Shown: positions 37,601-43,600 of the stretch, one piece after another | How positions within the stretch are numbered: the stretch's first letter is position 1 | Layout of the letters: each line of letters opens with the position of its first letter | Assembly: GCF_056712565.1 (NCBI RefSeq) | Contig: NZ_CM160072.1 | Reading direction: 5' to 3' (one strand) | Length of the DNA stretch: 64,000 bases | Program-made: the position numbers

Positions 37601-40600
37601 TTGAATGATCTGACGTTATTATTAATAATGTATTATTATAAAATGAACTGCGCCGAAAGAAGTCAATAAATTTCCCTAACTGAAAATCATAGTTATAGAA
37701 CTTATTGTAGAGAGGGTTGTTACCATCAAAATATTTTTCATTTGGGCTATCTTGACCATGATGAGTACCAGATGGATAGACACCAATAAAGAAGGGTCCT
37801 TTTTTATTTTCCTGAGAACGTAAAAAATATTGCAGTGCATTAAATGTTTGCTTATCCGTCATTCTGTCTCGTTGATAACCAATAAAATCACCCATACCAA
37901 GAACCTTATCAAAATTAAGTGTCTTCAACATTGTATTGAGTGGGCTATTTTTTTCGGTGGAAGCTATAAAATAACTTTTATATCCATACTCTTTTAATAT
38001 ATCAGGTAAAGATGTTTGACGGTGAAGGTAAATATTATTAATTTCTGCTTTAGATAATTGTGCGATACCTGTGCCAGCGTCAGTTAAACCATCTCGAAAT
38101 TGATAACCAGAAGTTAACTGACCTCTTAATCCTCGGAATGTTGCAGCTGTATGGTTATAATAATTTTTGAAACTTAGTGCTTCAGTAGATAATTTATCTA
38201 AATTAGGCGTAACTGAAAATGCTCTTGGTTTGGCATTACCCATAATTTCAGATGAAAATCCCTCAGCAAATATTACAATAACATTACGGCCTTTGAAACT
38301 GTAGTTGTTTTCTATAGGGTTAATAAAAACACTTGTTTTTAAAAAGAATTTCCCTGCATCTCCGATCTTCTTACTAGGCTTAAAGGTTTGCTGTAAATAG
38401 AACAATTTTGCTGTTTCATAAAAAGCATATACTGGTCCCGCACTTATGAAAGAACACACGAGCAATAATACTATACAGAGAAGGTTGAATTTATAATATT
38501 TAATACGCTCGGTTAGAGCCCCTGAAGGCAAGGTAATGAATGAAATTATAATAAACAAAATAAAAACAAAAAAAACTTTAATTACCTCACCAATACCCAA
38601 GGATTCAATTTCTGCAGCATTCGACAAGGCAAGAGGCATCAAATATTGTCCTGAACTAAATAGCGACGCTGCCTGCACACCTAAAATGGAAAGATAAATT
38701 ACCCATAAAATATTACTTACAAACTTTCTCTTTATCAGAAAGATTGCCACACTTATAAATGTGTATTCAATAGAAAATAAAAAAACACTATCCACCCTTC
38801 CAGAGTAAAGTAAAATACTCAAAAAAATACAGAAAGGCAAAATCATTCTAATAATAATTATAAAGTTCATGTTGAGTTAAACCATTTTATTTAAAATCTT
38901 TAATGCTATTAATTCAGCATTGCATCACCAGGGCAAGATTACGAAAGCCAGCTCCCCGCAAAAACTGATGCGAGGTAGTCTCTGTCCATATCTGCTCTTC
39001 TCATCTTACATCTTAACCCAGCCTTGAATACTTTATGTTTCGTCAAAATATTAATGCCGATATACCTGATCCCTGAAAATAATTCTGCTGCAATTCCTCT
39101 TCTTATTTTGCAGTGGTCTTCATTCATTACCACGCCCTGACGCCAGTGCAGCTTATTTTTCACGTGCCAGTGATTTCGAATCACTGTCGCAAACTTCTCT
39201 GCTGTTAAACCCGCAGAACTGATATAATATCTGACCGTCATTTCAGGCTCCTTCTTTTGTTCTGCTATTATTGACCGAAAGGAGACTGCCACGCATAATT
39301 TTATCAGTCCTTTCCATTAAAACGTGAAATCAATAAGTTTATCAGGAACATCGCAAACAATATGAAGACGGATGTCTTCTCTGCCGTGACTCTGTTCACT
39401 TATTTCGTAACTGCCATGCTTTGGATTATTTAATTCTTTCAGCGGGGATTATCCCTCAATGGCTTTATTAAGCCGCCCCTAATTTACTTTTACAGCGAAT
39501 AAATAATCACCTCCCCCGTTTTTGTATCTTCTCTGCAATATCTTTCTGGCAACCCATCGCATCAGTTGTGATAATTTTTCCTTTAATATCCATATGTTAA
39601 GAAGTTCTGGGATAGCTGTGACCTCATTGAATTTCTCATCCGTCTTGATCTGTCCGATGACCAGACTGTGCATTGTTGAGAACGCACTAATGACATGAAT
39701 CGCTCCCTTGCGGCGACTCTTGTCATAAGAATGCCGGAGTGTTTTTCCATCAATTGCGATGACGTCTTTATCATATGAAGAATAACAATCACGCATCCAG
39801 TTAATAAAGCACTCGTGAAATTTTGCAGGACTGATACAGGATACAACTCTGGCAATGGTATCGTGAGCAGGAATACCATGTTCAAAATCACCATATTGCT
39901 TCAAAAAAACGAGATGTGTTTCCCCAAAATCCTCTATATTTCCCAACCTTCTGCACCAAAAATAACGGCACAAATAGTCAACAGTAGAATATCCGACAAT
40001 TTATGTTCCACTTTCCAGGCTTGTCTGTAATCAGGGATAATAGAAATATGTTCCATCACTTTTTTAAGTTATAATTTTCATCTCTTAAGTAACATAATGA
40101 AATTTTATATTATTAATTAAATAGTTTTATTTAATTAAGAGCATTTTAATTATTGAATATATAATGCGTATTATTTAACAAAATAATAAGCGTTACATTT
40201 TTTACTCTGATAGCTATATAAGGCAGGGCAAGATTACGAAAGCCCGCTCCCCGCAAGGACTGACGCGAGATAGTTTCTGTCCATGGCTGCTTTTCGCATC
40301 TTACGTCTTAACCCTGCCTTGAATACCTTATCATTCGTTAAAATATTAATAGCGATGTGCCGTATCCCTGAAAATAATTCTGCGGCGTTTCCTCTTCTTA
40401 TTTTGCAGTCGTCTTCATTCATTACCACGTCCAGACGCCAGTGCAGCTTATTCTCCACGTGCCAGTGGTTTCGGATTGCTGTGGCGAACTTCTCTGCGGT
40501 TAAATCAACAGAACTGATATAATATCTGACCGTCATTTCTGGCTCTTTCTTTTGTTCTGCTATTATGGACCGAAAGGAGACTGCAACGTATAATTTCTTC

Positions 40601-43600
40601 AGTCCTTTCCATTCAAATGTGAAATCAATAAGTTCATCAGGGACATCGCAAACAATATGAAGACGGATTTCTTCTCTGCCGTGACTCTTTTCACTAATGG
40701 CGTAACTGTCATGTTCTGGATTATTTAATTCTTTCAGTGGAAATTTTTCCTCAAAGGCTTTATTAAGCCGCCCCTGATTTCCTTTTACAGCGAATAAATA
40801 ATCACCGCCCTGTTTTTATATCTTCTCTGCAATATCTTTCTGGCACCCCATCGCATCAGTTGTGATGATTTTTCCTTTAATATCCAGCATGTTAAGAAGT
40901 TCAGGGATAGCTGTAATTTCATTGGATTTCTCATCCGTCCTGATCTGTCCGATGACCAGACTGTGCATTGTTGAGAACGCACTAATGACATGAATCGCTC
41001 CCTTGCGGCGACTCTTGTCATAAGAATGCCGGAGTGTTTTTCCATCAATTGCGATGACGTCTTTATCATCTGAAGAATGGCAGTCACGCATCCAGTTAAT
41101 AAAGCACTCGTGAAACTTTGCAGGACTGATACAGGATACAACTCTGGCAATAGTATCGTGAACAGGAATACCATTATCAAAATCACCATATTGCTTCAAA
41201 AAATCGAGATGTGTTTCCCCAAAATCCTCTATATCTTCCCAGCCTTCTGCACCCGAAATAACGGCACAAATAGTCAACAGTAGAATATCCGATAATTTAT
41301 GTTCCACTTTCCAGGCTTGTCTGTAATCGGGGATAATAGAAATATGTTCCATCAATTTTTTAAGTTCCATTTTGTTCTCCTTAATTATGTAAGGAGTATT
41401 TGATCATGTATAAGCAATAAAAAACAGCTTTAGGTAATAAGGGATATCTCAATTTTTAAACATAAAATGCGAATTATTTAGTACAAAAAAGCAGCGTTAC
41501 GTGATCTTTCCCTGCTATATAAGGTCAATTATATTATTGTTAATGCGTTTAATAAATAGATTCATACATAGCAGCTATATGCCTCCAGTTATACATATCT
41601 TCAGCATAATTTTTTAAATCTAATACTCGACATTTAAGATTTCCAAAAGACAAACTTTCTGCTAATAAGCTAAGTTGTTCAGAATCATTAAAGTAATGAG
41701 CTAAATTGTTAGTTGTGTAACGATTAAAGTCACAATCGAAAGCAAAAATAGGAATATTAAAATGCATCGCTTCAACTAAAGAAGGGTTTGTTCCACCAGC
41801 CGAGTGTCCATGAATGTATGCAAGACAATTTTTTCTTAGTTTATAAAGCTCTTCAATATTATAGTTAGGTTCTAGTAGGGTGATATTTGGATAGTTTGAA
41901 TAATATTTTTTTAGCTGGCGTCCATACTCGCTGTTATCCCAATTACCCATAAATTTAATTTTTTTATCTGTATTAATGAAGGCATTCAGAATCATTTCTA
42001 TATTATTCTCAGGCTCTATCCTACAAAGCCCCAAATAATAACCTTCTTTTTTTTGATCATTGTCTATCGGTGTACTAAGATTAGTGGCATGATCTCCGCC
42101 ATAAGCTATAACTACACTTTTTTTCTTGTACTTATTTTCCACATAATCAGCTATTGCTTGATTATCTGAAATGATAATATCAGCTATTCTAATAGATATC
42201 GCCTCAGATATTTTAAGAAATTTCTTAGCAAACGTTCCCCATTTATTTCTACGCCATTCAAGCCCATCAATATTGACAATAATCTTTGATTTTGAAAATA
42301 GTTTATAAATTGGTAGAAATAAACAACCAGACACCCCCAATATTAAAACAACATCTGGCCTTTTGAATAAACAAATAATTAAACACATAATATCATAAAT
42401 TATGCTAGAGACGCCATTGGCATTTATCGGCAAATAGATTAATTCTGCATTTTTATAATTTTTAAATTTTTTATCATATTTTTTTGAAGAGCAAAATATC
42501 TGATATTGTATACCATCAGATTGATAATCAATTAGATTCTGAACAAGTGATTCGAACCCACCATAACAAGCAGGAACACCCACTGTGCCAACTACAGCGA
42601 CCGTCTTCATATTATTTTCTTCCATTTAAACACCTTGAGCCTAACTATTTTCGTATTAAAAATTATTGAACATACCATCACGTACAGCTTTAAAACAAAC
42701 CTTCAGTGAATTTAATTTTTCTTTCGAATATAAAATTTCAAATACAACATTCTTTGTCGCATGAAAAAAAGCATGATAACGATACTTGAAGCTATAATTT
42801 GAATGCAGCATTAAGTATATTGCATTGCGTATTTTATAAAAATTTCTGAAAGAATTATGTATTGTAACAGATCGACCAGCAAAAATTTTCTGCCCATACC
42901 CAAGTTCATGAGAAATGATGACTGATGGTGTCTGAACAATAATCATATTATTAGCTAATGCACGCCAACACCATTCTGTATCAACCCAGTCTATAAAGAG
43001 TTTTTCACAAAATGGTCCGACGACGCGCCATGCTTCACGAGACATTAACATCCCAGAAGCAATAACATGCGAGGGATAAAGATCATCGTCTACTTCACTA
43101 CATATAACTTTTGTACTCGTAAAAATATTTAGGCTGACTGACGGATGCATATAATTTGAACGATGGTCTTTAAAAAAAGGAGAAGCACAAGCAACATTTT
43201 TACCTTTTTTATTATTTTTCGTAAATGTACTCTTAAGTTTTTCAATAACATCGCTAGGAAAGCAAGTATCCTGATCTGAGAAAAATAAATAGTCAAACTC
43301 TTTTGCTTCCAGGCCCTTCTTAACACCATGGTTCTGAGCAAATGCAATGCCTTTGTTTTCCGAAAGTAAAATAATTTCAAGGTTATTAATACTGATATTT
43401 TTTATCAAATCACTATTATTTGAGCCATTATCTACAAGAATTATTCTCTCAACTTGTGGGGCTAAAGAGTTAATACATTCCGTCAATCGAATAATTTCCG
43501 GGTTGTAAGTAACAATTATAGCCAACACCTTAGCCTTACACATTAATCACTCCAAAGACCATATGATAATAGTATGTTAGATACAATAAAATTAACACTT

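Follow-up and report, generated by a model that had tools for sequence, protein, structure and literature searches.

The stretch of 64,000 nucleotides analysed here (the window) is the O2/O50 O-antigen gene cluster of E. coli. Its final gene, wekS (37242-38870, minus strand), adjoins gnd (35700-37106) and encodes a membrane-anchored protein of the sulfatase fold that is LTA-synthase or phosphoglycerol-transferase-like (Pfam Sulfatase at 1e-27, with weak similarity to phosphoglycerol transferase I). wekS has been named as the gene next to gnd in the O2 reference cluster G1674 (PMC5293828, PMC4013041), and is 91% identical in the O1-variant strain A47 (PMC5293828). A spacer of 58 bp (38871-38928) separates the wekS start codon from the end of a degenerate ISAs1-family (H-repeat) relic of 1281 bp (copy 1; 38929-40209, minus strand), and the junction reads ...ATCAC/C..., the stroke marking the boundary. 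Beyond the relic lie four bases of original flank, ATAG (40210-40213), and the left copy (40214-40223) of a 10-bp target-site duplication, CTATATAAGG. There follow an ISEc1 element (H-repeat) of 1291 bp (copy 2; 40224-41514, minus strand), recognized by its length, ends and identity, and the right copy of the duplication (41515-41524). The nearest O2-specific gene upstream of the IS pair encodes a DUF1972/GT1-family glycosyltransferase (41549-42625, minus strand; Pfam). The initial annotation had correctly placed the pair between this gene and wekS; its end coordinate, 41524, is that of the right target duplication, and copy 2 itself stops at 41514.

The two copies are head-to-tail in one orientation, with only 14 bp (40210-40223) between them. 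Self-comparison by blastn aligned 38929-40196 with 40224-41500 at 89.0% identity (1283 columns, 120 mismatches, 17 gap openings, E = 0), and a repeat search returned four co-linear blocks at a spacing of 1294-1296 bp. The two units of about 1.3 kb with a period of about 1295 bp that had been read from the sequence were thus recovered by both methods. Tandem Repeats Finder reported nothing; its longest period, 500, is shorter than the unit here. The matching stretch of about 130 bp that had been noted past the N-terminal end of each transposase belongs to the IS itself, as its 5' non-coding end (about 130-140 bp), and is 59% identical between the copies. The pair with its surroundings (2678 bp) recurs at 99% identity or more in 65 independent complete genomes, and the RefSeq annotation of the approximately 65 genomes carrying it lists ISAs1 pseudogenes. 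The pair is therefore a known kind of genome debris that has been annotated before.

Members of the ISAs1 family are about 1.2-1.5 kb long, have terminal inverted repeats starting with CAGGG, and generate a target-site duplication of 8-10 bp (ISfinder). They encode a single DDE transposase of about 370-380 aa, with a DDE_Tnp_1_assoc N-terminal domain and a DDE_Tnp_1 catalytic domain. The DDE domains, the length, the CAGGG ends and the short target duplication were all found at this locus. Fragments of both Pfam domains occur in both copies (5e-14 and 2e-5 in copy 1, 3e-34 and 2.5e-11 in copy 2), in agreement with the proposed ISAs1/H-repeat identity, and intact relatives (ydcC, the NGF1 element) match the NCBIfam model NF033564 transpos_ISAs1 at 1e-124. 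By ISfinder practice, iso-forms of one element share at least about 95% nucleotide identity. With respect to ISEc1 this applies to copy 2 alone (96.0% to yhhI, 99.0% to ydcC); at 88.4-88.5%, copy 1 lies below it. Neither copy has the uninterrupted transposase frame of an active IS.

Copy 2 is exactly 1291 bp long, with CAGGG...CCCTG terminal inverted repeats (ends CAGGGCAAGATTACG... and ...CGTGATCTTTCCCTG), and has CTATATAAGG on both sides as a perfect direct repeat of 10 bp. Its identity is 99.0% with the intact ISEc1 at the ydcC locus of unrelated strains and 96.0% with K-12 yhhI, and about 4900 records contain an ISAs1-family element at least 95% identical to it. ISEc1 as a whole occupies about 25,000 places in 5,342 genomes. 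Its transposase frame runs from 41370 down to 40234 on the minus strand. Compared with ydcC it shows 10 coding differences, one nonsense codon and no frameshift, and its sole disabling lesion is a change of CAA, as found in intact ISEc1, to TAA at codon 185 of 378 (40816-40818, minus strand). RefSeq lists it as 'ISEc1 family transposase, internal stop'.

Copy 1 is far more degraded. Its transposase frame lacks a start codon and is disrupted by two 1-nt deletions, one 1-nt insertion and four in-frame stops. That both transposases are inactive is thus borne out; as for their being broken by frameshifts or stops, frameshifts are confined to copy 1, and copy 2 has the single stop. The end of copy 1 on the wekS side is perfect (CAGGGCAAGATTACG), the far end is degenerate (CAGAGTAAAAAATG on the transposase strand, CAGAG...), and there is no target duplication, the flanks being TTGCATCAC on one side and ATAGCTATA on the other. 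Identity to ISEc1 is 91.9% in the coding part, about 59-72% in the 5' non-coding end and 88.4-88.5% over the whole element. Differences from ISEc1 fall 24/20/41 on the three codon positions, compared with 6/5/39 for intact pairs. Near-identical relatives of copy 1 are restricted to 63 records at 99% or above and 3 at 95-99% (the best matches sampled lie in the O2 cluster), and all others reach at most 92%.

Since copy 1 is only 88.4-88.5% identical to ISEc1, it is a different, otherwise unrepresented member of the ISAs1 family or a mosaic. Its identity to ISEc1 is uneven along the length (65, 72, 96, 96, 96, 95, 96, 88, 90, 95, 87 and 85% per successive 100 bp in transposase orientation), and for this reason copy 1 may be a mosaic rather than a single element that has simply decayed. 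At the relic-type 5' end, three lineages share 90-94% identity with one another and 63-72% with ISEc1. A search for a donor with exact and degenerate forms of a 29-mer from this relic-specific end, a strict pattern, gave no match in one genome per species of 100,044 species. Gene conversion of copy 1 by copy 2 found no support: where ISEc1 copies differ from one another, copy 1 matches copy 2 no more often than it matches the other ISEc1 copies.

The O2 clusters of the NGF1 type and of the APEC O2-211 type have an empty site for copy 2, ...ACTCTGATAGCTATATAAGGTCAATTATATT..., consisting of the relic end, one copy of the target and the glycosyltransferase flank, with ATAG directly before the single CTATATAAGG. 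An added ISAs1 element is found in or beside an H-repeat remnant in each of four cluster lineages, and differs in each. In the main O2 lineage the insertion lies 4 bp outside the relic end, in NGF1 190 bp from the relic 5' end (an element plus a 190-bp fragment), and in O2-211 about 365 bp from the relic 3' end; D97-1 has an ISEc1 followed by a 257-bp fragment. Depending on the lineage, the site holds an intact IS and a fragment, a fragment and a pseudo-element, or a 280-bp remnant, and wekS is kept throughout. The O2-211 element R2 combines a relic-type 5' end with a 3' region that matches ISEc1 at 95% identity, and the NGF1 element retains the degenerate relic terminus. The possibility that the NGF1 element is a relic-derived hybrid was discarded, as it has only 8 of 116 copy-1-specific states and, its terminal 20 bp or so apart, is an ISEc1-like element in its own right. 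CTATA was likewise dropped as a target motif for ISEc1: the window, NGF1 and D97-1 have it in the right flank, and rhsC, ydcC and yhhI lack it.

wekS is physically linked to the relic across all lineages examined. The wekS-relic junction is spanned in 146 of 151 wekS-bearing genomes, including some with non-O2 clusters, and the same ...ATCAC/C... boundary is common to the clusters of the window, NGF1, O2-211 and the non-O2 AP021896 types. In the comparison with other clusters that had been proposed for the sulfatase-family gene, the junction is thus not peculiar to O2. Between O2 lineages, the glycosyltransferase side is 96.8-98.5% identical and wekS 87-95%, with the drop from about 98% to about 87% falling exactly at the relic. 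The relic as the mark of a recombination boundary is thus supported, as is the suggested link of H-repeats to O-antigen cluster recombination, by the shared junction and by the identity step. The window and NGF1 alleles of wekS differ at 42, 31 and 129 sites by codon position, and the gene is under purifying selection. A promoter-like sequence, TTAATA-17-TAAAAT, is present in the spacer just upstream of wekS (38912-38884). Over the interval 38700-41700, promoter-like and terminator-like sites showed no excess over shuffled sequence (11 vs 10.8 and 3 vs 1.5), and there is therefore no case for an IS-borne promoter or a polar terminator.

Taken together, the pair very probably represents two separate ISAs1-family insertions that differ in age and lineage and are both dead, and no unit has been duplicated. 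Insertion is preferred over duplication because copy 2 is 99.0% identical to ISEc1 elsewhere and only 88-89% identical to copy 1, has its own target duplication, and has empty sites in sister lineages. Of the two origins first offered, an old tandem duplication or two related insertions, the latter stands, and the great age assigned to the pair applies to copy 1; copy 2 is comparatively recent. Along with the features read directly (identity, limits and lesions of the copies, target duplication, empty sites, wekS junction and identity step), we infer the following order of events at the relic. An ancient H-repeat, now copy 1, would have come to lie directly upstream of wekS, and the relic-wekS-gnd block is an old module at the gnd end of several O-antigen clusters, which the relic delimits from the serogroup-specific genes. 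An ordinary ISEc1 would then have entered, solely in the main O2/O50 lineage, the sequence CTATATAAGG, 4 bp past the relic 5' end, landing in the orientation of the relic and duplicating its 10-bp target, and the CAA to TAA change would later have killed its transposase. wekS itself might have joined the cluster by an IS-mediated or H-repeat-guided process. Neither copy is able to transpose and neither shows any sign of function. The pair presumably acts as about 2.6 kb of inert spacer within the operon, and transcription of wekS would either cross it by read-through or restart beyond it.

An assembly artefact, with a single element collapsed or expanded, can practically be dismissed. The proposed comparison of the copies found them to differ at 11% of positions, and the identical arrangement recurs in the 65 independently assembled complete genomes. 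It is also very improbable that a single resident H-repeat was duplicated in tandem long ago and that its copies then diverged in place to 89%. The head-to-tail layout in one orientation, the regular period of about 1295 bp and the presence of GCTATATAAGG after both units would all suit such an event, but divergence in place predicts that the copies are equally distant from other ISEc1, and copy 2 reaches 99.0% (ydcC) where copy 1 reaches 92% at most. In a segmental duplication each copy would be the nearest relative of the other, but the nearest relatives of copy 2 are ISEc1 elements at other loci, and the 5' ends are only 59% identical. Unequal crossing-over between flanking repeats should further have left CTATATAAGG a third time, on the left side of copy 1, where TTGCATCAC is found instead; the repeat at the unit boundary is present just twice, on the two sides of copy 2 and not of copy 1. 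ATAG follows copy 1 and is absent after copy 2, and two sister lineages have the target in a single copy. Nor does the pair form a composite transposon, with 14 bp between the copies and wekS outside them.

Alternatively, an ancestral tandem pair might have existed, with copy 2 overwritten through gene conversion by a genomic ISEc1 and the sister lineages losing that copy precisely. The mosaic ISAs1 elements at this site (O2-211 R2, the NGF1 terminus) indicate that H-repeat recombination or conversion does occur here. Even so, this scenario is most unlikely: it needs a replacement running exactly from inverted repeat to inverted repeat, together with a perfect 10-bp duplication and the removal of ATAG, and copy 1 does not resemble copy 2 more than it does other ISEc1 copies. 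It also requires two independent precise excisions, although loss of copy 2 in this manner in both sister lineages is formally possible. There is equally little likelihood that the pair has been co-opted, for instance as a promoter or regulatory spacer for wekS or as a selected patch of homology. In favour of a role are the purifying selection on wekS, which lies downstream of the pair, the fixation of the pair in all of the approximately 65 main-type genomes, and the promoter-like site described above. However, that site lies in the spacer and not in an IS, such sites are not enriched, the IS content varies by lineage while wekS stays, and clonal descent of the cluster accounts for the fixation. 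With two separate insertions as the preferred reading, the origin of the pair is in our view settled as adjacent insertion and not duplication.

wekS and the H-repeat relic are an old linked block common to several O-antigen cluster types. Whether the relic beside wekS is also a hot spot that draws ISEc1-type insertions, as in a family that targets its own DNA, is a tentative suggestion that we consider rather doubtful. If it were true, the relic-wekS block would be a portable cassette, swapped between O-antigen clusters through H-repeat homology, and the insertion in the main lineage, whose target is duplicated and whose site is empty in sister lineages, would provide evidence from nature that H-rpt/ISEc1 transposes. 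The pattern of an element with an abutting 5' fragment occurs at rhsC too, which bears on this reading. According to one genome paper, transposition of H-rpt/ISEc1 has not been observed (PMC3032704). Copy 2 offers a clean natural example of it, in which the target is duplicated and empty sites survive. The pair is of little practical importance; both elements have been annotated as pseudogenes, and the cluster is well studied and serves for O2 serotyping by PCR. Some caution is also advisable with typing assays aimed at wekS, since its alleles can be as much as 13% apart in serogroup O2 and the gene is also found in non-O2 clusters. In the open-access literature on wekS and the cluster transposases we found no account of how the two copies arose, of the target duplication or of the junction of wekS with the relic and its conservation.

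Among known systems, copy 2 corresponds to ISEc1 (the K-12 H-rpt, yhhI/ydcC), which it matches in length (1291 bp), in its CAGGG...CCCTG ends and in its frame of 378 codons. Unlike the ydcC and yhhI copies examined, which have no clean 10-bp target duplication, it has one, together with the nonsense codon 185. Copy 1, at 88% overall, is another element. A remnant of an H-repeat is also present in Salmonella, at the recombination junction of the group D2 cluster (PMC3715488). The likeness is that of a defective H-repeat between O-antigen blocks of differing history (here about 98% and 87% identity), and the relic at the boundary adds an E. coli example to the idea of H-repeat recombination proposed for that cluster. 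The E. coli locus differs in that the relic and wekS recur as a block in several cluster types and that the site has gathered further ISAs1 insertions. ISAs1-family or H-repeat-associated ORFs are also present in other E. coli O-antigen clusters, e.g. EPEC001 (PMC9705854), with the same kind of element and placement as in the window. The region downstream of rhsC in K-12 (ybfQ/ybfD) likewise has tandem defective H-rpt copies side by side in one orientation. These are reportedly the copies that Zhao et al. (1993) named H-rptC1-3. In a K-12-lineage strain, an internally deleted element at rhsC is directly abutted by a 381-bp 5' fragment of another H-repeat, an arrangement resembling those of NGF1 (190-bp fragment) and D97-1 (257-bp fragment). 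In the window, by contrast, both units are full length and lie 14 bp apart, target duplication included, and the pair therefore reflects a simple insertion side by side with the relic and is neither nested nor recombined.

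The two elements belong to the O-antigen cluster of E. coli serogroup O2/O50. Its genes run along the minus strand in the order rmlB-rmlD-rmlA-fdtA-fdtC-fdtB-wzx-GT4-rmlC-wzy-GT2-DUF1972 glycosyltransferase (41549-42625), followed by the element pair, wekS (37242-38870) and gnd (35700-37106). They form two ISAs1-type head-to-tail units with a period of about 1295 bp, as the initial annotation had it with a start off by at most 2 bp. By blastn, 38929-40196 and 40224-41500 align over 1283 columns at 89.0% identity, with 17 gap openings; co-linear repeat blocks are spaced 1294-1296 bp apart, and DDE_Tnp_1_assoc and DDE_Tnp_1 domains were found on ORF fragments of both copies. 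The 64-kb window holds no further copy. The region 38871-41548 (2678 bp) recurs at 99% identity or more in 65 complete genomes, including named O2:K1 APEC and ExPEC strains. RefSeq has three transposase entries in it, one “ISEc1 family transposase, internal stop” and two fragments labeled “ISAs1 family transposase”. ISAs1-family or H-repeat ORFs are commonplace in O-antigen clusters (PMC9705854, PMC3715488), and the IS pair is real, of a known kind and already annotated. Elsewhere in the cluster, GT2 glycosyltransferase and fdtC acetyltransferase are single intact ORFs (42656-43543 and 48572-49039); in strain IMT5155 (L001 17842-18671 and 23721-24167) the same genes are split or partial according to RefSeq, through either real decay there or sequencing errors of an older assembly.

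Copy 2 (40224-41514) is exactly 1291 bp long, starts with CAGGGCAAGATTACG, ends with CGTGATCTTTCCCTG and is surrounded by a perfect 10-bp direct repeat, CTATATAAGG (40214-40223 and 41515-41524). By all criteria tested it is ISEc1, the H-repeat (H-rpt) of E. coli. It has 99.0% identity with the ydcC-locus ISEc1 of unrelated strains and 96.0% with K-12 yhhI; copies at least 95% identical to it occur in about 4900 records. There are 10 coding differences from the intact ydcC-locus ISEc1 of strain WGS1363 (99.1% identity), and the sole lesion is CAA>TAA at codon 185 (40816-40818).

Copy 1 (38929-40209), a degenerate relic, has the features tested for the ISAs1 family and falls short of the identity tested for ISEc1. 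Its wekS-side end is a perfect CAGGGCAAGATTACG, the opposite end is degenerate, and no duplication flanks it. The start codon is gone, single nucleotides are deleted at two places and inserted at one, and the reading frame contains four in-frame stops. The 85 coding differences from the ISEc1 consensus are split 24/20/41 over the codon positions, compared with about 6/5/39 between intact pairs, and thus much of the divergence arose without selection. The 5' non-coding end shares 59% identity with ISEc1. Matches to copy 1 comprise 63 records at 99% or more and 3 at 95-99%, all others being at 92% or less; the top matches sampled were O2 clusters. Identity to ISEc1 is uneven: some 500 bp of N-terminal coding sequence (where the frameshifts fall) match at about 96%, the C-terminal part at 85-90% and the first 200 bp at 65-72%, which points to a mosaic origin or old conversion.

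Of the alternatives initially put forward, two related insertions stand and an old tandem duplication does not, as three independent tests (relatives, target duplication and empty sites) agree. Duplication is ruled out by the relatives, which reach 99.0% identity at other loci for copy 2 and, apart from 66 records, at most 92% for copy 1; by the 10-bp repeat, which surrounds copy 2 only, the left flank of copy 1 being unrelated; and by ATAG, present after copy 1 and absent after copy 2. The empty site reads ...ACTCTG ATAG CTATATAAGG TCAATTATATT..., i.e. relic end, single target copy and glycosyltransferase flank, and was found in two other lineages of the cluster family, NGF1-type (also PSUO2) and APEC O2-211-type. 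Its reconstruction was matched in one piece by 43 genomes at 90-95% identity, the level of sister lineages; no cluster of the window's type lacking copy 2 was found among 5,426 genomes. At its neutral 5' end the relic diverges by 6-10% among the three lineages, while copy 2 and the ydcC ISEc1 are 1% apart, and the insertion of copy 2 is thus much younger than the lineage split. One genome paper writes of H-rpt transposition that it “has not been observed” (PMC3032704); set against this, the clean insertion signature of copy 2 is of minor interest.

NGF1-type clusters carry at this site an ISAs1 element whose 378-aa transposase is intact and whose wekS-side end is a degenerate relic terminus. 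The relic's last 190 bp follow this element, which shares just 8 of 116 copy-1-specific states. The element holds the relic's place in NGF1 (L003 8836-9972) and HH45 (L009 7542-8678). Its wekS-side terminus is TGAGTAAGGAAGGACTAG in place of CAGGGCAAGATTACG and, judging from this degenerate sequence, it may be immobile although its gene is intact. In APEC O2-211, a 359-bp 3' fragment adjoins wekS, and beyond it lies a full-length pseudo-element that combines a 5' end of relic type with a 3' region at 95% identity to ISEc1. A simple reading, offered as a model and not a demonstration, is that ISEc1-like elements would have inserted independently in each lineage into or beside one ancestral relic, a nested element then having recombined with it. 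A 5' fragment of another H-repeat abuts directly on an ISAs1 5' end, in the same orientation, at three unrelated sites: in NGF1 (L003 10123-10312, 190 bp), in D97-1 (L004 9153-9409, 257 bp) and, similarly, downstream of rhsC in a K-12-lineage strain (L010 4218-5574, 381 bp). This recurrence hints at nested insertion with subsequent recombination, or at another systematic mechanism.

Nothing suggests a function for the IS pair. Both transposases are inactivated, promoter-like and terminator-like motifs of the element region occur at chance level only, and IS content here changes freely from lineage to lineage, with wekS retained. RfaH-dependent antitermination is known for O-antigen operons, and on this basis wekS is presumably expressed past the 2.6 kb of IS debris via read-through from the operon promoter. 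The 58-bp spacer immediately ahead of the wekS start codon contains a sigma-70-like site (TTAATA, 17 nt, TAAAAT; 38884-38912, minus strand), a candidate operon-independent promoter, although such sites are no commoner here than in shuffled sequence.

The wekS protein is membrane-anchored, has a sulfatase fold and weakly resembles phosphoglycerol transferase I and the structure of an uncharacterised Vibrio protein; the name glycosyltransferase used in some papers (PMC4013041) finds no support in its domain content. Alleles are up to 13% apart, with changes concentrated at third codon positions (42/31/129), indicating a maintained gene. At least four alleles, 5-13% apart in DNA, were seen (window 37242-38870; NGF1, L003 7135-8763; APEC O2-211, L008 5843-7462; 2018-02-2CC, L002 7138-8646), and two that are 87% identical are yet paired with 98% identical O2 glycosyltransferase blocks. 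Since wekS also occurs in non-O2 clusters and its alleles are divergent, a wekS typing PCR is neither strictly O2-specific nor uniform within O2. The gene is intact in the window. IMT5155 (L001 12376-13376) and MFDS1019527 have it frameshifted, IS1 truncates it in D97-1 (L004 7135-7680), an IS1A insertion lies beside it in OZ546967, and it is unannotated in UPEC129. Being broken in some strains, it appears dispensable there despite long-term purifying selection.

The junction between the wekS-upstream spacer and the H-repeat end (...ATCAC/C...) is the same in four cluster types, those of the window, NGF1, APEC O2-211 and 2018-02-2CC (AP021896), the last with different glycosyltransferases, an EpsG-type polymerase and a relic reduced to about 280 bp. 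A 668-bp junction-spanning probe was at least 80% covered in 146 of the 151 genomes matching it. In D97-1 (O10-family wzy), the truncated wekS is followed by ISEc1 and the fragment of another ISAs1. Besides its relic, 2018-02-2CC has a second, separate ISAs1 pseudogene mid-cluster (L002 13616-14693), about 85% identical to the window copies.

The window's lineage and the NGF1 lineage are 97-99% identical in each 400-bp segment between the target site and wzx, and 81-91% identical from wekS through ugd; among the three lineages, identity is 96.8-98.5% on the glycosyltransferase side and 87-95% in wekS. The relic-type 5' fragment (87.6%) is part of the diverged block, and the relic thus lies on a boundary, with DNA of a different history on either side. 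This identity step and the conserved wekS junction support the suggested tie between H-repeat position and O-antigen cluster recombination. The non-duplicated flanks of copy 1 fit a joining event at an H-repeat, a step that we infer. The novelty of this analysis is interpretive, and lies in the adjacent insertion, of which target duplication and empty sites are the proof, the repeated hits at one site, and the conserved relic-wekS block. In its position at such a boundary the relic is like the H-repeat remnant of Salmonella group D2, for which the same has been proposed (PMC3715488).
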